Shown here one piece after another: positions 30,493 to 41,798 of a stretch of DNA of 64,000 nt (its first letter is position 1; each line of letters starts with the position of its first letter). The stretch spans positions 7,037-71,036 of the forward strand of contig DYNA01000002.1 of assembly GCA_020721325.1 (NCBI GenBank), in the 5' to 3' direction. The stretch is from Paludibacter propionicigenes (GTDB lineage: Bacteria; Bacteroidota; Bacteroidia; Bacteroidales; JAIFNL01). The notes under the pieces were generated by a model. That model was not told the DNA's origin, did no database searches, and was given only the letters and a program-made list of their open reading frames with translations. The position numbers were made by a program, and so were the translations under genes.

Positions 30493-31494
30493 TTATTTTT
30501 CCAAAATATACTCTACTCGTTGAGGAGAAAAATCTAAATTAAATGCAAACTTTGAAGTATTTTCCAAATTAACTCTTAAAGTCTTTGAATTTTCCATGAT
30601 TTCTTTGTAATCTACTGTAAATTTAAAATCTTCCGCCTTTACTTTTAAATAATTGGATATTGATATATTAAACTGAATATGAATATTTTGTGGAAATAAT
30701 TGCAAGTCATATTGCGAAGGTAAATTTACTATTTCAATTGGAATTTGCATTGTTTTTTCTGTAAATTCTTCTATCGGAACAAATACTTTTACTCGTGGGA
30801 TTGAAAAAGAAATGCCGGAAATTTCTTGCAGTTCACATGTTAAATCCAAATGATTATCTATTGAAAAAAACTCATATTCCTCTGTCTGTACGAAAGCTAT
30901 TTTTTCCAATAATTGCCTTGAACCGGAAATGATAATACTATCTGGAATAATTCTTTCGGGTGTAGTTTGAAAAAACTGTTGTTTTAGTGATAATTTGATG
31001 TTACTTTTTACCGGAACTTTTTTTGTTTGTATGTTTTCATACAAAAAGAAAAGACTATCGGGGCGAATAGCTATTATTTTAAAGTTATCGCCTATGTGGG
31101 CTGAAATCAGATTTTTTAGCTTTGATGTTCTTACAAAATACGAGACCGAATCGGTTTTCATTCGATTCACATAGCGTGAATCGGATTTTATTTTTATGGT
31201 ATTTTTAAATATGGTTGTATTGAAATCGAGAATGCTAAAACCGCGTGCATTTATTTGTACTGTCAAATTACCTATTGACGTTTTATTTTGTATAAGTGCT
31301 TGATTATTAAATGTATTAATAAATTCATAAGGTACTTCAATAAAACTGTTGTACTGCTTAGCTAACGCATTTAAGAACCAAAAAATAGTAGATAAAAACA
31401 AAAAAAATAAAAAAACAAAGTACTTTTTTTGCAATTTAAAATTTCGTACTCTTTTAACTGTTAAAAGATAAAATATTCGTATTTTTTTTTCCAC
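30493..31494 (-). CDS. YbbR-like domain protein
   Basis: 333 aa with an N-terminal TM helix and repeated beta-rich modules. Its position between yajC and coaE is, as I recall, typical of Bacteroidota. No strong motif seen. Confidence 0.5.
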   Translation of the reverse strand: MEKKIRIFYLLTVKRVRNFKLQKKYFVFLFFLFLSTIFWFLNALAKQYNSFIEVPYEFINTFNNQALIQNKTSIGNLTVQINARGFSILDFNTTIFKNTIKIKSDSRYVNRMKTDSVSYFVRTSKLKNLISAHIGDNFKIIAIRPDSLFFLYENIQTKKVPVKSNIKLSLKQQFFQTTPERIIPDSIIISGSRQLLEKIAFVQTEEYEFFSIDNHLDLTCELQEISGISFSIPRVKVFVPIEEFTEKTMQIPIEIVNLPSQYDLQLFPQNIHIQFNISISNYLKVKAEDFKFTVDYKEIMENSKTLRVNLENTSKFAFNLDFSPQRVEYILEK

Positions 31495-32415: not shown

Positions 32416-33363
32416 TTATTCTTTTAAACCTCTACCGACTTTTTTAATTTTTCCGGTATTTTTAAGTTCGTCTATACAATTCTCTAAAACAGCATTTATA
32501 AACTCACTGCTTCTTTCTGTACTGTAAAATTTTGATAGCTCAATGTACTCATTCATACTCACTTTAACAGGAATAGAATCGAAAAATTCAATTTCTGCTA
32601 AAGCCATCAAAATTAGAATGATGTCAATTTGGGCAATACGCTCAATATCCCAATTCGTAATGTGCCTTTTAATTAACTCTTCAAATTCTTTTTTATGAAT
32701 TAAAGTTTTACGAATTAAATTTTTCGCAAACTCTATATCATCTTCATTATTAAATGATTGAACAATTTTTTTTGTTTCAGTATTGCCAATTTTCATTGCT
32801 TCAATGCTTTTGATAAGCATACTCAATACAAATTCAAAATCATCTGTCCAAAAGATACTTGTTTCTTCGAGCCATAAAAAAAGAGCCTCATTTTCAGCAA
32901 AAATATTTTCAATTATTTGTATAATTAATTCTTGGTCTTCGCTATATTTATTAAGCTCATTTTCAGACATATATTGCTTATAAATATCACTTTCCAAAAC
33001 TTTATTGAAAACATCTTTAACTACTTCGTCATATTTTGACCATGATAATTTTTCTCTTTGAATATAGTCTTTAAACTGCTGGTTTTCATTTAATTGCTTT
33101 ATAATTTTATTATTTACAAAGCGTAGATTCGGATTCAAATCTTCATTTGACGGAAGTCTTTTATTTTTTGCTTTTTCTATTTTATCTTCTGCTAATTTTA
33201 CTAATTCACTTAACAAGGCTACATTATAAAAAAATAAATCATACGATTTATTTATACTAAAAAAAAGCTCTTTTTCAGCCTGTTGTATCGATTTTTCGGG
33301 CGTTTGCATATAAGAATATAATATTTGCATTCCCTTTATTCGTAGAAGTCTTCTACTGACCAT
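32416..33363 (-). CDS. nusB: Transcription antitermination factor NusB (long Bacteroidota form)
   Basis: N-terminus SRRLLRIKGMQILY. C-terminal NusB core NWDIERIAQIDIILILMALAEI...FINAVL. Confidence 0.8.
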   Translation of the reverse strand: MVSRRLLRIKGMQILYSYMQTPEKSIQQAEKELFFSINKSYDLFFYNVALLSELVKLAEDKIEKAKNKRLPSNEDLNPNLRFVNNKIIKQLNENQQFKDYIQREKLSWSKYDEVVKDVFNKVLESDIYKQYMSENELNKYSEDQELIIQIIENIFAENEALFLWLEETSIFWTDDFEFVLSMLIKSIEAMKIGNTETKKIVQSFNNEDDIEFAKNLIRKTLIHKKEFEELIKRHITNWDIERIAQIDIILILMALAEIEFFDSIPVKVSMNEYIELSKFYSTERSSEFINAVLENCIDELKNTGKIKKVGRGLKE

Positions 33364-33707: not shown

Positions 33708-33944
33708 ATGGAAGAAAAAACAAATATAAACAAACCCGCTGTTGTTGAATTAGTTAAGGGGCAAACGTACAAATGGTGTACATGCGATTTTTCAAAAAAT
33801 CAGCCCTTTTGCGATGCAAGTCATAAAGGCAAAACCGATTTAAAATCGCTCCATTTCACTGCCGAAAATGATGGGAAAGCCTATCTTTGCCAATGCAAAA
33901 AAACAAAAACTCCGCCTTATTGCGATGGTTCGCATAGATTGTAG
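33708..33944 (+). CDS. CDGSH-type iron-sulfur domain protein (two motifs)
   Basis: Two CxC-x8/9-C-D-[AG]-S-H motifs are present: WCTCDFSKNQPFCDASH and LCQCKKTKTPPYCDGSH. Confidence 0.9.
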   Translation: MEEKTNINKPAVVELVKGQTYKWCTCDFSKNQPFCDASHKGKTDLKSLHFTAENDGKAYLCQCKKTKTPPYCDGSHRL

Positions 33945-34014: not shown

Positions 34015-35565
34015 TTAGTTTTCCGGATATTTTGTTATTTCCCTTATATTTTTATAAAGCGATTCCAGTTTTTTATACATTTTTAAATATACTTTTTTAT
34101 ATAAATCCTTATAAATTAAGGCATTTTCTTTGTTTGGCAAAAAAGTTTTTTCAAAAGCAACCATTTTTGTAACCGCTTCATTTAGAGTTGAATAAATACC
34201 TACTCCATAAGCGGTAATAATTGCAGCTCCTAAACCTGAAGTTTCATAAGTTTTTCCTCGCAAAAGTGGCATATTAAAAACATCGGCTGTAATTTGGCAA
34301 ATTTCATCACTTTGCGACGCTCCTCCCGAAACAGCAATTTGGCTAAATTTAAAGCCTCCTCGCTTTTGTAATCGGTGCATTCCATCAAGCAAACCATACG
34401 CAAGTCCTTCAATTACAGCTCTATAAACATGTTCCTTTTTATGCACATCGCCAAAACCAATCATTGCACCTTTGGCATTTTTTTCGCCCAAACCCGGCGA
34501 CCAGTAAGGTTGCACGATTAACCCCATTGCTCCAGCAGGTGATTTATTAAGTAATTCATTCATAACTACTTCCGCTGGAATATTTAATTCGGACGCTTTT
34601 TGAACTTCCTTGAAAGCAAACTCGTTTTTAAACCAACTTATCATCCAAAAGCCCCGATAAATCTCAATTTCTGGATTCCAATGATTAGCCATTAACGAAG
34701 GATATGCCGGAAAAAAACGAATGGGTTCTAAATATTTTGCCACTGTGGTTTGCACGGTAGCAGTCGTGCCAAAACTTAAACTTGCTGTTTTACAATTAGT
34801 TACACCCATACCCAGCGTTTCGCAGCCTTTATCCGAGCCACATGCAATTACGGGCGTTCCGACCGGAATGGCAGTTTGTTCAAATGCTTTTTCAGAAATT
34901 TTGCCTATTAGTCCTCCGGGTTTTACAAGGTTTGGAAGCTTCTCTTTTTCAATCGGATACAATTTTCCACTTAACTCAAAAATATCTTTTGGATTAGACC
35001 AATCTTGTTTTTTATAATCAAAAGGAATGTATCCGATTTGCGAAGCAATCGAATCTGAAAAAACACCGGTTAATTTATAGTTCAAAAAACCCGAAATTTG
35101 TAAATATTTATAAGTTTTTTTCCATAGTAGCGGTTCATTTTGTCTTATCCAATTGCATTGTCCTTTACGTTCCATTTTTTTTAAAGTTGTCTTTACTCCA
35201 ATTGCTTTGAAAATCAAATCGATAAAAAAATTTGGCTTGTAAACATTTTTAGCTGTACGTTGGTCGAGCCACAAAAGCGATGGACGTAAAACGGTTCCAT
35301 TTTCATCAACATTTACCATTGTACTGCGCAAAGTAGTAACGCCAACACCCTTTATGTGCTTAAAAACTTGAGAGTTACGCTTTTCCAATTCAACACTTGC
35401 CTTACAAAGGCTATTCCAGTAAATATCAGCATGTTGCTCTGCCCACCCTGCTTTTGGGCTTTGGTAGGGTTCATAAAAAACTTGCTCTTTATCAATTACT
35501 TCCCCTTTTTCACTAAACAAAATAGCTCTGGTACTTTGCGTGCCACAATCAATGGATAATATCAT
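34015..35565 (-). CDS. FGGY-family carbohydrate/polyol kinase
   Basis: N-terminus ILSIDCGTQSTRAILF. C-terminus VSGGASQSD. 516 aa. Substrate cannot be determined from the sequence. Confidence 0.85.
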   Translation of the reverse strand: MILSIDCGTQSTRAILFSEKGEVIDKEQVFYEPYQSPKAGWAEQHADIYWNSLCKASVELEKRNSQVFKHIKGVGVTTLRSTMVNVDENGTVLRPSLLWLDQRTAKNVYKPNFFIDLIFKAIGVKTTLKKMERKGQCNWIRQNEPLLWKKTYKYLQISGFLNYKLTGVFSDSIASQIGYIPFDYKKQDWSNPKDIFELSGKLYPIEKEKLPNLVKPGGLIGKISEKAFEQTAIPVGTPVIACGSDKGCETLGMGVTNCKTASLSFGTTATVQTTVAKYLEPIRFFPAYPSLMANHWNPEIEIYRGFWMISWFKNEFAFKEVQKASELNIPAEVVMNELLNKSPAGAMGLIVQPYWSPGLGEKNAKGAMIGFGDVHKKEHVYRAVIEGLAYGLLDGMHRLQKRGGFKFSQIAVSGGASQSDEICQITADVFNMPLLRGKTYETSGLGAAIITAYGVGIYSTLNEAVTKMVAFEKTFLPNKENALIYKDLYKKVYLKMYKKLESLYKNIREITKYPEN

Positions 35566-35582
35566 GCTAAAAAATATTATAT

Positions 35583-37310
35583 TTATTTATAACTTACATC
35601 TAAACCTAATTGCTTACCGGCATTCATAATATTATTTGGGTCAAAATGCTTTTTCAAAGCTTTTAACACATTCATTTGGCTTTCGCCCAAATGTTTTGGC
35701 ATCAATCGAGCAATCATTCGACCAACTCCGTGATGGTGCGATAGCGAACCGCCACTTTTTTCAATCGTGTCAATCAAGCCTTCTTGAAATGCCAAATAAC
35801 TTTTTAAATCATTTTCTTTTATAATGAAAATAAAATACAAATTTGTTCCTTGCATATAAAAATGCGAGGCATGAGTCATGCAAATTGTTTTGGGACGTGA
35901 TTTTACATAATTTCTACATTTTTCGTGTACTTCATGCAAATTATCCCAATAAACCGAAGTTTCCAATGTATCAATAATAATACCGAAATCCATTAAATCC
36001 TCGCGCATATACGGGTCGCGATATCGACCGGGTTCCCACTTTTTTACCGGAAAAGCCGTTAATGACATTGCACCATGTTTTTTACAAATTCGTTTTACCT
36101 GATTTTTTATATTTTTAGTAAAAAGTTTTTCGCCATCGGCAGAAGCTAAAAACAAACATCTCTGCATTGGTTTATAGCCTCGAAATATCATTAATTTATC
36201 AAAAATTGTATCTTCTATGCCATAAAGTTTTAAACCAATATGAGTTTCTTCAGGGTCTGAAATTCTAAAAACAGCCGGCATACCAAATTCTCCTTGCGAA
36301 ATTTCGCGACTCGCCTCTACGGCTGCCTCCCAAGTTGGAAAAATAAAGCTAAAATATTTCCTATTTTCGAGCTTATATCTAAAAATTTTCCAAGTCAATT
36401 CTACAACAATTCCAAAAACACCTTCGCTGCCTTTAATTATATCTAAAACCTTTGGACCGGTGGCTGTTGCAGCATAATTTTTGGTTACAATAGTGCCTTG
36501 TGGAGTTATCATTTCCACACCCAAAACCAAGTCGCCGGCATCGCCATAGTACGATGACTGCTGCCCAGAACCAAGCGTTACAAACCAACCGCCAACTGAC
36601 GAATATTCAAAGGATTGTGGAAAATGACCACATGTAAAATTGTGCTTTGTTTTAAAAAGTTTTTTGGCATTATTTAAAGCCTCTTCAAATGCCGGTCCAA
36701 ACATACCCGCTTCAACTATAACTGTTTGATTTTTTTCATTTAATTGAATTATTTTATTCAAATGAGTGGATAAAACCAATGTTACTCCGCCTTTTTCTGG
36801 CAAAAAGCCTAAATTTACTGAAGAACCTCCACCAAAAATATAAATAGGTAGCTTTTCTACATTGCAAAAATCAACAATTTGCTTAATTTCTTCTTTATTT
36901 CTTGGGTGAATAACCAAATCAGTTATCTGTTCTACCTGTTTAGTACGCAATTTGATGGCTTCTTCTACTGTTTTACCGGTTGAAAACTTCAATCTCTCAT
37001 ATTCATCTGCTGAAATATTTTCGTTACCTGAAATTTCACTAAACTTTTTTATCTGATATTCCGTTAATTTACTTTTTAATTGAAAATCAACTACTTCATT
37101 TCCCGTTGATGTATATTGTTCAAAATCGGAATCTGATAAGTCAAAAGTAGCTTTAATCTCCTGAAAAAGCCTAAAATTAGGGTGTTTAAAGCCATTTGGC
37201 GCACCGTATTTAAAAATGGAACGAAAACTTTTTTCTTGAGGAGCTTCATTTATCCAACGAGGCTCAAATCTTTCATTTTTTACCATGTTTTTTTTAATAA
37301 AAATTATCAA
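35583..37310 (-). CDS. FAD-linked oxidase, alkyl-dihydroxyacetonephosphate synthase (AGPS)-like
   Basis: 575 aa with a long N-terminal extension before the FAD-binding PCMH domain. The C-terminal SLSHHHGVGRM contains the His-His-His loop characteristic of AGPS rather than GlcD-type oxidases. An alternative start exists at 37286 (MVKNERF). Confidence 0.7.
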   Translation of the reverse strand: MIIFIKKNMVKNERFEPRWINEAPQEKSFRSIFKYGAPNGFKHPNFRLFQEIKATFDLSDSDFEQYTSTGNEVVDFQLKSKLTEYQIKKFSEISGNENISADEYERLKFSTGKTVEEAIKLRTKQVEQITDLVIHPRNKEEIKQIVDFCNVEKLPIYIFGGGSSVNLGFLPEKGGVTLVLSTHLNKIIQLNEKNQTVIVEAGMFGPAFEEALNNAKKLFKTKHNFTCGHFPQSFEYSSVGGWFVTLGSGQQSSYYGDAGDLVLGVEMITPQGTIVTKNYAATATGPKVLDIIKGSEGVFGIVVELTWKIFRYKLENRKYFSFIFPTWEAAVEASREISQGEFGMPAVFRISDPEETHIGLKLYGIEDTIFDKLMIFRGYKPMQRCLFLASADGEKLFTKNIKNQVKRICKKHGAMSLTAFPVKKWEPGRYRDPYMREDLMDFGIIIDTLETSVYWDNLHEVHEKCRNYVKSRPKTICMTHASHFYMQGTNLYFIFIIKENDLKSYLAFQEGLIDTIEKSGGSLSHHHGVGRMIARLMPKHLGESQMNVLKALKKHFDPNNIMNAGKQLGLDVSYK

Positions 37311-37316
37311 TTAATT

Positions 37317-38960
37317 TTATTGTGGAATAGCTAAAATCTGCTCTAATTTTTCAATTTCCGAAACTGTTTTTTCAACCGACCAAGATAATTCTTTTGCAGC
37401 AATTTGAGCTATTTTTTCAATAATTTCTTTTCCCGGATTGCCTAATAGCGCTATTCCAGTACGTCTTAAAACAATATCTGTCAATGATTTAGCCATCTCA
37501 TTACGTATTGCAAAAACTACCTGTGCCAAATTTTCGCCATCTGAATTAAGTGGTTTTAACCATTCTTCATTTTCTTTTCCCAAATCTATTATGCTATCTA
37601 TCTCATTACCATAGCTTTTGCTCAAGTACAATGCTTGCTGAGAAGTCATGAAAGGATATTTTTGCGTGTTCTTCAGAAAAAAATCTTCAAAATCTTCAAT
37701 TTCAGAACTATGCAAATATTTTTTTTCTGAAATGGATTTTTGTTTTGGATATTTTAGAATTCTAAATATCTTATCTACAGCTTTTTGCGCAAGCATCCGG
37801 CTTGTTGTAAATTTTCCACCTTCAACAGTCAACAAACCGGCTATTCCATTTTTTTTCTCGCCCGTAATTTCGTATTTTCGAGACGAATTGTAAACATCTT
37901 CCGTCTGGTCTTCTACCAAAGGGCGTAAACCGCCATAAACATAACTAATATCTTCATATTTAATAAGTTGTGGCTGTTCTAACGCCTGATTAACATCTTC
38001 CAATAATTCTAAAATAGCCTTTTTTGTAACTTTGTAATCATCTGGTTTTCCGATATATTCCTTGTCCGTAGTGCCTATTAAAGTTTTATTTCGGTAAGGA
38101 ACTAAAAAAAAGTGTTTTCCCTTTGCTGTTGAGCCTGAAAAAACATAAGTTTCATTCAATTTTTTGGTAACAATGTGAATGCCTTCTGAGCGTCTAAGTT
38201 CTTGATTTTCTGTATTTTTCTTTACTTTATCCAATAAAATATCAGCCCAAGGACCGGAACAATTAATTACTAATTTTGCATGAATTTGCTTTTTTTCGCC
38301 CGAAAGTTTATCCAATGCCAAAACTCCTTTAACTTTTTTTAACAGACCATTTTGTTCTATCAAGAAATCGAGCATTTCAGTATAATTTGCCACTGAAGCA
38401 CCACATTTTACAGCCGATTTGGCAAAAGCCAATGTAAAACGCTCGGGCGAGTGACTCGAACAATCATAATACAATTGCCCGCCAAGTAATTCACTTTCAG
38501 GAGCTATCGGAATTAATTCTTTTAATTTCTTAGCACTAATTGTTTGAAAATGTGGTATTTTTTTACTTTTATCGCGAACCCAATTTTTGTCAAACGAAAA
38601 TAGTTCATACAACATCATTCCGATTTTCATTACTAAAGGTGTAATCTTATTTTTTTTATACATTGAAAAAATAAAAGGTAATGGGTGTATAAAATTGGGC
38701 GCAATATCCGATAAAATGCGCCTTTCACGCAATGATTCGCGAACTAAACGAAATTCAAATATTGATAAATAACGCAAACCGCCGTGAATCATGCGCGAAG
38801 TAGCTGATGATGTGGCACTTGCAAAGTCATTTTTTTCTATCAATGCCACCGACAAACCGCGTGAGGCTGCTTCGTAAGCAACTGATACTCCGGTTATTCC
38901 ACCTCCAATGACTAACAAATCAAATTCTTTTCCGGTATAATTTTCAATAAATCTTTCCAT
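37317..38960 (-). CDS. glpD: FAD-dependent glycerol-3-phosphate dehydrogenase/oxidase
   Basis: N-terminal dinucleotide fold DLLVIGGGITGVSVAYEAASRG...SSATSRMIHGGLRYL. 547 aa. Confidence 0.85.
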   Translation of the reverse strand: MERFIENYTGKEFDLLVIGGGITGVSVAYEAASRGLSVALIEKNDFASATSSATSRMIHGGLRYLSIFEFRLVRESLRERRILSDIAPNFIHPLPFIFSMYKKNKITPLVMKIGMMLYELFSFDKNWVRDKSKKIPHFQTISAKKLKELIPIAPESELLGGQLYYDCSSHSPERFTLAFAKSAVKCGASVANYTEMLDFLIEQNGLLKKVKGVLALDKLSGEKKQIHAKLVINCSGPWADILLDKVKKNTENQELRRSEGIHIVTKKLNETYVFSGSTAKGKHFFLVPYRNKTLIGTTDKEYIGKPDDYKVTKKAILELLEDVNQALEQPQLIKYEDISYVYGGLRPLVEDQTEDVYNSSRKYEITGEKKNGIAGLLTVEGGKFTTSRMLAQKAVDKIFRILKYPKQKSISEKKYLHSSEIEDFEDFFLKNTQKYPFMTSQQALYLSKSYGNEIDSIIDLGKENEEWLKPLNSDGENLAQVVFAIRNEMAKSLTDIVLRRTGIALLGNPGKEIIEKIAQIAAKELSWSVEKTVSEIEKLEQILAIPQ

Positions 38961-38985
38961 TTTTATTTTATTAAAAGTCTGTTAT

Positions 38986-39684
38986 TCAACTATTTACATT
39001 AAAAATGTCTTCCCAACTTTGCTTACTTGACTGCATAACTTTAGTAACCAAGTCGTCAATTTTTGTTGGATTTGTAAGTATTAATTCTTTTAAATTTTTA
39101 TAAAAATCATTTGATATTTTTTTTGTTGCATCTGCAAAAAAATATTTTTGAGCCTGCTCGTAATAAATTTCAGATAAATCGTTGTAAAGCATCAGAGCCA
39201 CAGTATTTTGACTTTCTTTAATTAACAAAACTTGCAAGTTCCAATCGAAAAGTGCCCAAATTTTAGCTTCTGAAAGCAATGCTGGAATATTTTCTAAAAA
39301 CGGCAAAATTTTTTCGGCATTTTTAGTTATCGCTTTTTGTGCCAAATGCGGTAAAATTAAACTTCTAAATTCGAGCCAATCCAAAACCAATTTTTGCGAT
39401 GTAAATTCACTGAATTGAACTAAGGTTTTAAGCACACCTAAACCTCCAACTTCTTGATAATCATTAATTAATGTCGGTCTTCCATGTTTAATACTAATCC
39501 AACCATCTCGTGAAAGTCGTTGCAATACTTCGCGCAAAGTAGGTCGCGTAATCCCCAGTAATTGTGCCAATTCGCGTTCGGGTGGTAAAGAATTACCAAC
39601 TTTGAATTTTCCAGACAAAATTGACTTAACAATTTCTTTTTCAGCAAATTGTGCCGGTTTAATAAATTTTTCAAATTGTTCCAT
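38986..39684 (-). CDS. fadR: FadR-type GntR-family regulator (acyl-CoA-responsive type)
   Basis: [38 protein letters not shown] closely parallels the E. coli FadR wHTH as I remember it ([23 protein letters not shown]). The start was placed at MEQFEKF. The ORF extends to 39717. Confidence 0.7.
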   Translation of the reverse strand: [232 protein letters not shown]

Positions 39685-39869
39685 TTTTCTAAAAATTGGT
39701 TTGAGGTCTGACCACAAAAATACATATTTTTTAAATAAAAAAAAAATTTTATATAAAATTTTGAAAAAGAAAAAAAAAATATTAAATTGCAGTTAATTAA
39801 TTGTTTTGCAAATTAATCAGTCATTTCTGATTATTTTTTTTAAAATAAAATTTACTTAATAAAAAAAAG

Positions 39870-41798
39870 ATGAAAAAATTAGCTTTTATTGTTATTTGTC
39901 TATTTTATAATTCCATAACTTACTCTCAAACTGATATTTATGACTTATCATTAGAAGAATTGCTTTCTATGGAAGTGAGTGTAGCCTCTAAGGAACATGA
40001 AAAAATTAACGATGCCGCTGGCATCATTTCGGTTCTTACAAATAAAGAAATTGAAAATTTTGGTGCTTTAAACTTAGGAGAATTGCTCAATAGAATTACA
40101 AGTATGTATCACTTGCAAGGCGGAATGTTGCCTTTCAATGTGGCGTCGATGAGAGCACAACACAACGGAGTGTTTGATAATCATATACTTATACTGCTCA
40201 ACGGTCGCCCCTTGCGCGATGCCAGCTCTGGCGGTTTTAATAACGTGATTTACAACTCATTTCCTATCGGAATGATTGACCGCATCGAAATTATTCGAGG
40301 TCCGGGTTCGGCTCTTTATGGCTCGAACGCTTTTTCAGGTGTACTTAATATTGTAACTAAATTGATTGAAAATGATGGTTTAGCTGCAAAAAATTGCTTT
40401 ACAACCGGAAGTTTTGAAACTATCAAAGACCAAATATGCGGAATTTATAGCAAAAACTACCTAAAATTGAATTTTGCAGCAGAAATATCACGCGATAAAG
40501 GTGAATTTTATCAATATTATGATGCCAGTAAGACTTTGGGCAGTGCAAATTATGAAAAAGATGGCGAAAGTTTATTTCTCAATGCCGAATATAAGAATTT
40601 CAAAGCCGATTTTCTATATCTCAATTTTGTACCTTTTTATATAGGAAATAAAATTTTATGGAAAAATGCCGGAGAAATTGAATCGATGAATAGATTATTT
40701 GGAAATTTAACACATCAAGCACATTTTACCGAAAAATTAGAATTAGAATCAAATTTAACTTACAATGGATTTGAGTGGAATCCAGAGAACGCAAAAAGTT
40801 ATTCCTTGCTTTTGGAATTGATTTTAAAATTCAATCCAACAGAAAAAATTCATCTGATAGCTGCATCTGTGAACGATTTTAGCGACTGGACTGGGAGCGA
40901 TTTTTCTTCAGGAACAAGCTTTCAATCAAATATTTATGCGCAATTCACTTACGATGCTTTTTCATTCTTAAAAATTATAGGCGGCTTTCAACTCAATAAT
41001 ATTGGCAATACCACGCAGCATCTTTCCCCGCGCGTAGGTTTGGTGTCGAATTTTACGAAACATATAGGAGCTAAAATACTGTATAGCAATGCTTTTAGAA
41101 ATCCTTATCCTACAGAAACTCGTTTTTTGCGCGACAATGTTGTAGGAAATCCGGATTTGTTACCCGAAAAAATAAACACCATTGAGACCCAAGCATTTTA
41201 CCAAAATACAAATTTTCAAGTTTCCCTTACTTATTATAATTCGGAAATGACGGATATTATAACTAAAAAAAGAAATCCGGTAACTGGAAAAGGCGAATTT
41301 TTAAATTTGCTTGAGCATAATTTTTGGGGCTTAGAATTTGAAAGCAAATTAAATTTAATTCAGCGAATTTCTTTTTTCACATCGGCTACTTACCAGGAAA
41401 ATAAAAATAGCCTTGAGCAGAAAAATGCTACTTATGTACCTAATGTAATGGCTAAAATTGGCGTTTTTTATAATTGCCCGCGTGTCGTTTTTGGTGTTTT
41501 CGACAGTTATTTTGGCGAACCGACCCAATCGAACGAACTTTTGCCGGCAACGGCTCAAATTCCTGAACTTAATATAAAACCGACTGATTTTCATTTACTT
41601 TCGGCAAATTTGAGCTTAAAATTAAATTCCATTTTCAAAATAAAAGGTTCAACTTCTTTTACGACCGAATTTTACGTAAGTAATTTATTAGATAAAAAAA
41701 TTTATTTTCCAGAAATATCTGTAAATGCTATAAATGGTGTGCCTTTATATCCGGGAAGAGCTTATTTTGGAAAATTAATTATTAAAATAAATAGGTAA
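39870..41798 (+). CDS. TonB-dependent receptor (small, 642 aa)
   Basis: Signal peptide. Plug motifs (IEIIRGPGSALYGSNAFSGVLNIVTK) and a beta-barrel ending in an aromatic-rich C-terminus. Confidence 0.85.
   Translation: MKKLAFIVICLFYNSITYSQTDIYDLSLEELLSMEVSVASKEHEKINDAAGIISVLTNKEIENFGALNLGELLNRITSMYHLQGGMLPFNVASMRAQHNGVFDNHILILLNGRPLRDASSGGFNNVIYNSFPIGMIDRIEIIRGPGSALYGSNAFSGVLNIVTKLIENDGLAAKNCFTTGSFETIKDQICGIYSKNYLKLNFAAEISRDKGEFYQYYDASKTLGSANYEKDGESLFLNAEYKNFKADFLYLNFVPFYIGNKILWKNAGEIESMNRLFGNLTHQAHFTEKLELESNLTYNGFEWNPENAKSYSLLLELILKFNPTEKIHLIAASVNDFSDWTGSDFSSGTSFQSNIYAQFTYDAFSFLKIIGGFQLNNIGNTTQHLSPRVGLVSNFTKHIGAKILYSNAFRNPYPTETRFLRDNVVGNPDLLPEKINTIETQAFYQNTNFQVSLTYYNSEMTDIITKKRNPVTGKGEFLNLLEHNFWGLEFESKLNLIQRISFFTSATYQENKNSLEQKNATYVPNVMAKIGVFYNCPRVVFGVFDSYFGEPTQSNELLPATAQIPELNIKPTDFHLLSANLSLKLNSIFKIKGSTSFTTEFYVSNLLDKKIYFPEISVNAINGVPLYPGRAYFGKLIIKINR

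Follow-up and report, generated by a model that had tools for sequence, protein, structure and literature searches.

As described by Kotecka et al. (2021, PMC8151288), the Pseudomonas aeruginosa genes PA3026-PA3024 form an operon for a FAD-linked oxidase, to which the alkylglycerone-phosphate step is assigned, a homologue of the glycerol-3-phosphate dehydrogenase GlpD, and an FGGY kinase. By the same account, the lipid kinase gene PA3023 follows, the AraC regulator GliR (PA3027) activates the operon together with the phospholipase C PlcA, and clustered orthologues are found in few genomes. Here we analyze a locus of this kind in Paludibacter propionicigenes, where four minus-strand genes are predicted to encode a FadR-family regulator, a GlpD-type dehydrogenase, a flavoenzyme of the alkyl-dihydroxyacetone phosphate synthase (AGPS) family, and an FGGY-family kinase. 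The locus lies in a stretch of 64,000 nucleotides (nt) that we refer to as the window (assembly GCA_020721325.1, contig DYNA01000002.1, positions 7,037 to 71,036 of the forward strand). The operon type is widespread in bacteria and known from Pseudomonas; what is new here is the Bacteroidota copy, with its own FadR-type regulator and a defined predicted operator. A literature search, with supplements outside its scope, did not return an association of a FadR-type regulator with AGPS, GlpD, and FGGY genes.

Compared through the annotation given in the Pseudomonas paper (PMC8151288), the two operons hold the same three enzyme families together with a local regulator, and that account gives the Pseudomonas genes a putative "glycerolipid" role. 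They differ in control, with a divergent AraC activator in Pseudomonas and a FadR-type, repressor-like protein plus a palindromic operator in the window. Gene order also differs, and no YegS-type lipid kinase gene follows in the window. The listings of our literature search show no functional study of the AGPS-like genes of PA3024-PA3026 beyond PMC8151288, and none for the AGPS-like genes among Rv2249c/Rv2251/Rv2252/Rv3107c or ygcU/ygcE/ygcS/ygcW.

Elsewhere in bacteria, the Agps enzyme that Myxococcus xanthus encodes (MXAN_1676) is implicated in ether-lipid or plasmalogen formation in two papers (PMC13159169, PMC11868695), in which homologues of Agps from bacteria count as possible ether-lipid genes and none outside Myxococcus comes with proof of function. 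This enzyme can be likened to that of the window by description only, and the passages of these papers on MXAN_1676 mention neither a kinase nor a GlpD neighborhood.

The four genes form a conserved operon

The open reading frame (ORF) list places four consecutive minus-strand ORFs at 34015-35565, 35583-37310, 37317-38960, and 38986-39717, with listed lengths of 516, 575 (from TTG), 547, and 243 (from TTG) residues. Pfam agrees with the reading given in a preliminary description of the window, which had named them, from the upstream end, as a FadR-like regulator, GlpD, a FAD-linked oxidase, and an FGGY kinase. Gaps of 17, 6 to 30, and 25 nt within the cluster indicate operon-like packing. For the two ORFs listed from TTG, internal ATG codons are the most likely starts, judging from comparison with related sequences. 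The regulator probably begins at ATG 39684 (232 residues), since this ATG and the codons after it are kept in two sister species and TTG 39717 lies inside a conserved promoter and operator block. The oxidase probably begins at ATG 37286 (567 residues), as a database twin that is 100% identical (P0005) has this length. Proteins of about 70% identity occur in Maribellus species.

We collected the best 80 homologous loci, with one genome per species, from Bacteroidales, Spirochaetota, and Thermodesulfobacteriota (e.g., Desulfosarcina, Desulfoluna, and Smithella), and clustered all 841 of their ORFs into families. Only four families occur in more than 8 of the 80 loci: the AGPS-like enzyme (77), the GlpD-like enzyme (57), a GntR/FadR_C regulator (44), and the FGGY kinase (37). 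No acyltransferase, reductase, lipase, or transporter family recurs. Among the 55 well-flanked loci, which have at least 4 kb upstream and at least 2 kb downstream of the oxidase gene, GlpD is present in 44, the regulator in 30, the FGGY kinase in 27, and all three in 15. Gene order varies by lineage. Writing R, D, A, and K for regulator, dehydrogenase, AGPS-like gene, and kinase, it is R-D-A-K in the window, other Bacteroidales, and Smithella; R-D-A in most Spirochaetota; and R-D-K-A or d-r-K-A in Desulfobacterales. These data firmly show that the four genes are a conserved operon with a local repressor-type regulator, whose core is a GlpD-type and an AGPS-family enzyme, usually joined by a dedicated kinase.

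A separate observation concerns a DUF362 protein of 444 residues, encoded between the AGPS-like gene and the kinase gene in two Smithella-type loci (L079 and L092). The DUF362 ORF family occurs in 6 of the 80 loci, and its position was checked in those two.

The module is spread unevenly within the order. Of the 41 genomes searched from this order, 8 gave strong oxidase matches (E < 1e-130), and 22 others gave only weak matches to proteins of about 950 to 1,000 residues. GlpD-like and FGGY genes adjoin the oxidase gene in five of seven relatives' loci, and in the other two the oxidase gene stands alone. In an oxidase tree drawn without the eukaryotic AGPS and without M. xanthus Agps, the window protein belongs to a Bacteroidota clade of ten members (99% support), which is itself nested among sequences from Spirochaetota, and four other genomes of the order (G023, G034, G027, and G038) carry a separate, deeper AGPS-like lineage. 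This nesting, together with the separate lineage within the same order, suggests that the module may move between phyla.

Two further variants were seen. There is a second module type, whose GlpD-like gene is only 26 to 31% identical to that of the window, and one genome (G016) carries at least two AGPS-like genes, which share 77% and 50% identity with the one in the window.

The oxidase belongs to the AGPS family

The oxidase gene (35583-37286, minus strand; ORF open to TTG 37310) encodes a protein with FAD_binding_4 (PF01565, E = 6.5e-30) and FAD-oxidase_C (PF02913, E = 9.7e-35) domains in Pfam, and its C-terminal translation contains the string SLSHHHGVGRM. The protein had been described as AGPS-like rather than a relative of GlcD or D-lactate dehydrogenase, and comparisons by sequence, profile, and fold each rank AGPS first by a wide margin. 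In phmmer searches of all PDB entries the best matches are Dictyostelium AGPS (2uuu, 8.6e-71, over residues 98-566) and guinea-pig AGPS (4bby, 1e-51), whereas the matches to D-lactate dehydrogenase (1.1e-20), glycolate oxidase, and D-2-hydroxyglutarate dehydrogenase are confined to the FAD domain, at 1e-20 or weaker. A profile built from 40 family sequences gives a wider gap than phmmer, with 8e-113 for AGPS against 5.7e-40. The first 74 or so residues are unaligned by sequence to AGPS in the profile comparison.

Structure prediction gives the same ranking. We used the AlphaFold model of the oxidase (predicted local distance difference test score 89.3; predicted template modeling [TM] score 0.88) as a Foldseek query, and ranks 1 to 37 are all AGPS chains, with TM scores of 0.73 to 0.82, followed by mouse D-lactate dehydrogenase. 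The alignments to AGPS, a family marked by an extra N-terminal domain with a gating helix, span 520 to 584 columns of the 567-residue model, versus about 497 for D-lactate dehydrogenase.

According to a review (PMC3509576), residues R352, Y508, and R447 of Dictyostelium AGPS are important for catalysis. In the phmmer alignment to 2uuu, with a 3-residue chain offset allowed for, R352, R447, and Y508, whose catalytic roles were proven by mutagenesis, align to R349, R436, and Y492 of the oxidase in the 575-residue numbering. Across an alignment of 84 family members, R349, Y492, and the His-His-His (HHH) loop at H525-H527 are invariant, and R436 is kept in 83, the exception being a homologue on a Roseibium plasmid. 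We rejected GlcD or D-lactate dehydrogenase as an identity, given AGPS so far ahead by all three kinds of comparison and a score of 143.9 bits on the NCBIfam GlcD model against its cut-off of 567.9. The oxidase does not cluster with D-lactate or glycolate oxidases, and the AGPS assignment stands at family level. These comparisons firmly place the oxidase in the AGPS family, with an intact catalytic set, and not among GlcD or D-lactate dehydrogenase relatives.

The eukaryotic enzymes (AGPS/ADPS; 2UUU and 4BBY; EC 2.5.1.26) share with the oxidase the FAD domain, the Tyr, two Arg, the HHH loop, and a fold that appears to extend along the whole length. They differ in that identity is only about 27% (Foldseek) and in their genomic partners, since the window has a kinase and a dehydrogenase in place of GNPAT and a fatty-alcohol-forming reductase (FAR).

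Related clusters in other bacteria

Plasmid and chromid records contain AGPS-like homologues 27 to 30% identical to the window's. On Streptomyces fungicidicus p1 and a Tsukamurella tyrosinosolvens plasmid the order is glpD, a TetR gene, a FAD oxidoreductase gene, and a gene for a lipid kinase of the YegS/Rv2252 type. The pairing of glpD with an AGPS-like gene that the preliminary description had mentioned for mycobacteria is therefore seen in Tsukamurella, a member of the Mycobacteriales, and in Streptomyces; we take the actinobacterial cluster to correspond to Rv2249c-Rv2252 of Mycobacterium tuberculosis. It resembles the window in having a GlpD-like enzyme, an AGPS-like enzyme with the full set of two Arg, Tyr, and HHH, a kinase, and a local repressor. 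It differs in its kinase, which is a lipid kinase of the DAGK family instead of FGGY, and in its TetR regulator. The actinobacterial AGPS-like proteins (27.5 to 28.8% identical to the window's by tblastn) branch outside the window's clade.

Two other contexts have a different character. The Roseibium homologue is surrounded by genes for a LacI regulator, a xylulokinase, a sugar ABC transporter, and a glycerol dehydrogenase. In Escherichia coli K-12, the ygc cluster (2892657-2903374) encodes YgcU, the FGGY kinase YgcE, the electron transfer flavoprotein (ETF)-like YgcQ/R, YgcN/O, two major facilitator superfamily (MFS) transporters, and a short-chain dehydrogenase/reductase. YgcU belongs to the AGPS clade, and YgcE is related to the window kinase; the literature search returned no functional study for either protein. 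YgcU is 26% identical to the oxidase (E = 1e-41), has AGPS as its best PDB match, and also carries the Tyr, an Arg, and the HHH loop. To our knowledge, E. coli does not make ether lipids. The HHH loop, put forward earlier as a hallmark of AGPS, is universal in the family alignment but not exclusive to ether-lipid makers; its presence in YgcU makes it a mark of the clade and not of a proven activity. The ygc cluster differs from the window in having no GlpD. YgcU is also shorter (484 residues versus 567), the extra 80 to 100 or so residues of the oxidase lying at the N terminus, and further from true AGPS, with 135 bits to 2uuu versus 242 for the oxidase in the same test. The chemistry of the AGPS-like clade may be easier to study in this cluster, taken as a model.

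These contexts raise another explanation for the window, namely, a soluble small-molecule pathway in which the kinase would act on a polyol, ketose, or glycerol derivative and both flavoenzymes would be ordinary dehydrogenases working on its phosphorylated product, the AGPS-like protein being a redox enzyme, as is suspected of YgcU. Consistent with this, YgcU keeps its Tyr, Arg, and HHH but has ETF-like flavoproteins, MFS transporters, and YgcE as its genomic neighbors; the Roseibium neighbors are those of sugar metabolism; FGGY kinases are known to act on soluble substrates; and a TonB-dependent receptor gene is divergently transcribed beside the module in the window. On the other side, the window oxidase is far closer to true AGPS than YgcU is and has the additional N-terminal region, the regulators are of the FadR_C type, a lipid kinase occupies the kinase slot in actinobacteria, and neither the window nor, as a recurrent feature, the set of 80 loci shows a linked ETF, Fe-S partner, or sugar transporter. 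On balance, we consider a soluble pathway unlikely.

A dedicated kinase and a GlpD-type dehydrogenase

The kinase gene (34015-35565, minus strand; 516 residues) matches Pfam FGGY_N (1e-39) and FGGY_C (9.6e-24). Its best NCBIfam match is XylB, with 235.4 bits against a cut-off of 380.25, and it scores 152.2 against 590.35 for GlpK; no equivalog cut-off was reached in a test that covered GlpK, XylB, GntK, LsrK, FucK, AraB, and RhaB. In a kinase tree, 39 module kinases, including that of the window, form a single clade with 99% support in the Shimodaira-Hasegawa-like approximate likelihood ratio test (SH-aLRT), and three other kinases fall outside it: the GlpK of the same genome, YgcE of E. coli, and the Roseibium xylulokinase. 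With both scores far below the cut-offs and the module kinases in a clade of their own, we rejected GlpK and XylB as identities. The nearest named relative is YgcE (27% identity, E = 7e-67). At the positions that we take to be the glycerol-binding ones of E. coli GlpK, the module kinase keeps the equivalents of Arg, Trp, and the catalytic Asp but not of Glu, Tyr, and Phe, from which we draw no conclusion. ESM Atlas returned only generic "FGGY carbohydrate kinase" cluster names, and a search by terms in a paper on the FGGY family (PMC3245297) turned up no subfamily matching the module kinase.

The dehydrogenase gene (37317-38960, minus strand; 547 residues) encodes a FAD dehydrogenase of the GlpD/GlpO family, with Pfam DAO (1.9e-54) and DAO_C (6.3e-19). 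Solved glycerol-3-phosphate dehydrogenases and oxidases match it over the full length at E = 3e-62 to 3e-55, and it scores 319.7 bits on the NCBIfam GlpD model PRK12266, below the equivalog cut-off of 360. The genome also has, on contigs other than the window's, a canonical GlpK, which scores 745 bits (cut-off, 590), together with a further GlpD-like gene that shares 29% identity with the module copy and whose 287.1 bits on the GlpD model are also under the cut-off. The presence of these two genes indicates that the module is not the sole glycerol route.

These results bear on a further explanation, that the kinase and GlpD carry out plain glycerol catabolism and that an unrelated flavoenzyme shares their operon by chance. 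Membership of the dehydrogenase in the GlpD family is clear, and some non-Pseudomonas carriers of the Pseudomonas-type cluster are reported, in the account of that operon, to have no other glpD or glpK homologues (PMC8151288). Against it, the kinase is not GlpK and belongs to a distinct clade of module kinases, while a canonical GlpK is available in the genome. Chance also does not explain why the AGPS-like gene is the constant member and why 44 of the 55 well-flanked loci have GlpD alongside it. We regard this explanation as very improbable.

A FadR-family regulator with a predicted operator

The regulator gene (38986-39684, minus strand; ORF open to TTG 39717) matches Pfam GntR (1.3e-18) and FadR_C (7.3e-21), and among solved structures its product is closest to the FadR proteins of Vibrio cholerae and E. 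coli, with E values from 3e-34 to 9e-33. Its winged helix-turn-helix was earlier likened to that of E. coli FadR, and the residue-level comparison agrees. FadR contacts DNA through E34, R35, T44, R45, T46, R49, H65, and G66, as listed in a study of the family (PMC7797058), and seven of these eight residues are kept in the regulator (E34, R35, T44, R45, R49, H65, and G66), with T46 replaced by Pro. Scores on the NCBIfam FadR models fall just below the cut-offs (PRK04984, 184.2 versus 189; TIGR02812, 180.5 versus 249.2). The two proteins share the winged helix-turn-helix plus FadR_C architecture and differ at the C terminus, where the acyl-CoA-binding region of E. coli FadR finds no alignable counterpart. 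Acyl-CoA binding by the regulator is therefore unsupported, and such sensing stays a guess.

The same source gives TGGTNxACCA as the operator signature of the FadR subgroup (PMC7797058). An operator-like palindrome that fits this signature in seven of eight letters lies 20 nt upstream of the regulator ATG, at 39704-39714; it reads TGGTCAGACCT on the gene strand and AGGTCTGACCA on the plus strand. Its core, GGTCNGACC, occurs once in the 64-kb window versus 0.03 occurrences expected. We aligned the spacers of the window and of two genomes of the same genus (G001 and G002) and found the core at the same place in both; it is present in 0 of 13 other loci compared. The palindrome is contained in a 25-nt block that is invariant in the three species, and the rest of the spacer has diverged. 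Together, the DNA-contact residues and the conserved palindrome support a real FadR-family protein with a matching predicted operator.

Directly 5' of the palindrome on the gene strand, at 39715-39722, is a likely Bacteroidota-type -7 promoter box, TATTTTTG. The consensus of this box in Bacteroidota is TAnnTTTG, and this form is present in all three species, the sister genomes having TACTTTTG. A protein bound at the palindrome, which abuts the -7 box, would cover the region of transcription start, and we infer that it would act as a repressor. A scan for sigma-70 promoters gave no excess over shuffled sequence (37 found versus 36.9 expected).

We searched the 4.36-Mb assembly for a wider FadR regulon and rejected it, as only the local site was left. 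The assembly has 42 GGTCNGACC sites. About 34 are of the CGGTCWGACCG form seen in a repeated element, and seven other non-repeat sites lie inside ORFs, so that the site at the module is the only intergenic, non-repeat copy. This single site suggests that the regulator, unlike the FadR of E. coli and V. cholerae, is dedicated to one local operon of four genes and perhaps also to the divergent receptor gene.

The repeated element is an observation of its own. It is intergenic, about 130 nt long, and resembles a miniature inverted-repeat transposable element (MITE), with terminal inverted repeats, paired internal CGGTCWGACCG motifs, and apparent short flanking duplications. Copies lie on contigs outside the window (e.g., C1:2600-2760, C18, C110, C114, C177, and C199). 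Eight exact copies of its 29-nt core were aligned, each with two GGTCNGACC sites, which accounts for at least 16 of the 42 sites in the assembly.

Possible function of the module

We tentatively propose that the module serves the turnover or salvage of preformed glycerolipids, such as monoacyl- or monoalkylglycerols, and not de novo ether-lipid synthesis. The FadR-family repressor would bind the palindrome at the -7 box and keep the operon off until released by a ligand, which is probably lipid derived. The three enzymes would then work one after another on a glycerol backbone substituted at O-1. The dedicated FGGY kinase would phosphorylate O-3. The GlpD-type flavoenzyme would oxidize C-2, converting a 1-O-substituted glycerol-3-phosphate to the 1-O-substituted dihydroxyacetone phosphate (DHAP) that an AGPS-type enzyme needs. 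Finally, the AGPS-family flavoenzyme would break or exchange the C1-O bond through flavin-DHAP adduct chemistry. In this proposal we infer which substrates are used, in what order the steps occur, which way the pathway runs, and what kind of ligand acts.

The preliminary description had explained GlpD as a source of DHAP, the backbone of the AGPS substrate, and this part of its account is weak. DHAP is a glycolytic intermediate and plentiful, and it is not itself a substrate of AGPS. Given the tight pairing of GlpD and AGPS, these points suggest that the dehydrogenase makes the AGPS substrate directly. GlpD-type quinone-linked enzymes also work in the oxidative direction, which, together with the lack of linked biosynthetic partners, favors lipid turnover. 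The FadR_C-type regulators, the lipid kinase in the actinobacterial kinase slot, and the coregulation of the Pseudomonas operon with PlcA likewise favor turnover over de novo synthesis. Links to lipids and to catabolism can also be argued from the lipid kinase gene that follows the Pseudomonas operon, from the co-occurrence of alkylglycerol kinases with AGPS, also in prokaryotes, and from the beta-oxidation-type genes in the genome, which also has a DAGK-type lipid kinase outside the module. As reported in a preprint (PMC13596139), the kinase domain of ACAD10 is an alkylglycerol kinase encoded by 55% of AGPS-holding organisms, and its prokaryotic homologues phosphorylate chimyl alcohol.

The chief competitor is de novo ether-lipid synthesis, a role also proposed in the GliR paper. 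The kinase and GlpD would produce DHAP, an unlinked acyltransferase would convert it to acyl-DHAP, and the AGPS-like enzyme would swap the acyl group for a fatty alcohol, yielding alkyl-DHAP. The complete catalytic set of a true AGPS and a fold that appears to span the whole AGPS length are in its favor. The closest relatives outside Bacteroidota also include Desulfobacterales such as Desulfosarcina, an order for which alkylglycerol lipids are reported, and the treatment of bacterial Agps homologues as potential ether-lipid genes, cited at the outset, counts on the same side. The genes that such a pathway would need are a difficulty. Pfam and NCBIfam searches over the window found no acyltransferase or fatty-acyl reductase gene in the cluster, in agreement with the preliminary description, and none of DHAP acyltransferase, FAR, or alkyl-DHAP reductase is linked in the 80 loci. 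A genome-wide search that had been suggested for FAR gave no convincing candidate, the best NAD_binding_4 match being an epimerase-type protein of 332 residues. No HGD-D domain (PlsA/Ger type) was found in the genome either, and in an assembly 91% complete such absences are not proof. A search of the 41 genomes for FAR_C (PF03015) had no match and was uninformative, since the control genomes were silent too. Glycolysis supplies DHAP, so that a dedicated kinase and dehydrogenase would be unneeded, and the local repressor-type control and patchy spread (8 of 41 genomes of the order) resemble an accessory trait and not core membrane synthesis. De novo synthesis is therefore somewhat doubtful in our view. 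The ether-lipid or glycerolipid module first suggested for these genes keeps its AGPS family, its FadR family, and its conservation, and ether-lipid synthesis itself is unsupported.

Glycerolipid turnover, the reading that we prefer, has its own difficulties. We know of no FGGY kinase that acts on a lipid and of no AGPS that cleaves an ether by running backwards. The module GlpD fits the canonical GlpD model slightly better than its paralogue does (319.7 versus 287.1 bits) and may simply oxidize unsubstituted glycerol-3-phosphate. Neither the window nor the 80 loci showed a linked gene for a lipase, an esterase, or a lipid porter of the FadL type, and 9 of the 55 well-flanked loci hold the AGPS-like gene without any module partner. 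The C-terminal 30 residues of the regulator cannot be aligned to E. coli FadR, the alignment ending at residue 202 of 232. The genes that accompany E. coli YgcE and YgcU suggest a redox role with a soluble substrate, and the sugar-related surroundings of the Roseibium homologue weigh in the same direction. Deletion of PA3026-PA3024 had no phenotype on glycerol, on Biolog plates, in motility, or in biofilm formation, according to the Pseudomonas study (PMC8151288).

A narrower form of the turnover reading is an oxygen-independent route for 1-O-alkyl (ether) glycerols, made up of an alkyl- or acylglycerol kinase, a GlpD paralogue that forms alkyl-DHAP, and a reversed AGPS half-reaction. The AGPS-family enzyme would reverse its second half-reaction, expelling the fatty alcohol and leaving DHAP or acyl-DHAP. 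We judge this version to be unlikely.

Neighboring genes

Upstream of the module are a divergent TonB-dependent receptor gene (39870-41798, plus strand; 642 residues; Pfam Plug and TonB_dep_Rec_b-barrel) and a gene for asparagine synthase B. Among the loci of seven relatives, the receptor adjoins the module only in the two same-genus genomes, and of the 80 related loci a single one has it when query coverage of at least 50% is required. The adjacency may thus be plain synteny among close relatives, and membership of the receptor in the module is uncertain.

Downstream lie a small gene for a CDGSH protein, convergent with the kinase gene, and a NusB-like gene. The first (33708-33944, plus strand) encodes 78 residues, fewer than the 80 of the shortest listed ORFs, and its product has a pair of CDGSH iron-sulfur motifs (Pfam zf-CDGSH, 9.6e-18); the gene is kept at the same place, at 87 to 89% identity, only in the two same-genus genomes and is probably unrelated to the module. 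The NusB-family protein (32416-33363, minus strand; 315 residues) has its NusB domain only at residues 184 to 300 or so, and its N-terminal extension of about 180 residues has no Pfam or NCBIfam match. The same is true of a 333-residue ORF between yajC and coaE (30493-31494, minus strand). The window is low in G+C (0.27 to 0.39 per 2-kb block), and Rfam and tRNA scans of it gave no matches.

Implications

Bacterial AGPS homologues are widely counted as ether-lipid markers in environmental genomics, as the studies cited above illustrate (PMC13159169, PMC11868695). The genes that accompany the homologue described here are those of a dehydrogenase, a dedicated kinase, and a lipid-type repressor instead of ether-lipid biosynthesis partners, which calls for caution in ether-lipid surveys. 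The locus also gives a concrete three-enzyme pathway that is open to test, and its conserved predicted operator and small regulator offer a simple handle for finding the inducing molecule. If the substrates are 1-O-substituted glycerols, the module would explain how substrates of AGPS are supplied or disposed of without a DHAP acyltransferase, and it might reveal anaerobic breakage of ether lipids, which occur in abundance in sediments and animal tissues and persist there. Should the ether-cleavage version be correct, this would be the first anaerobic pathway of ether-lipid cleavage, and a GlpD-type enzyme, not a DHAP acyltransferase, would feed the bacterial AGPS.

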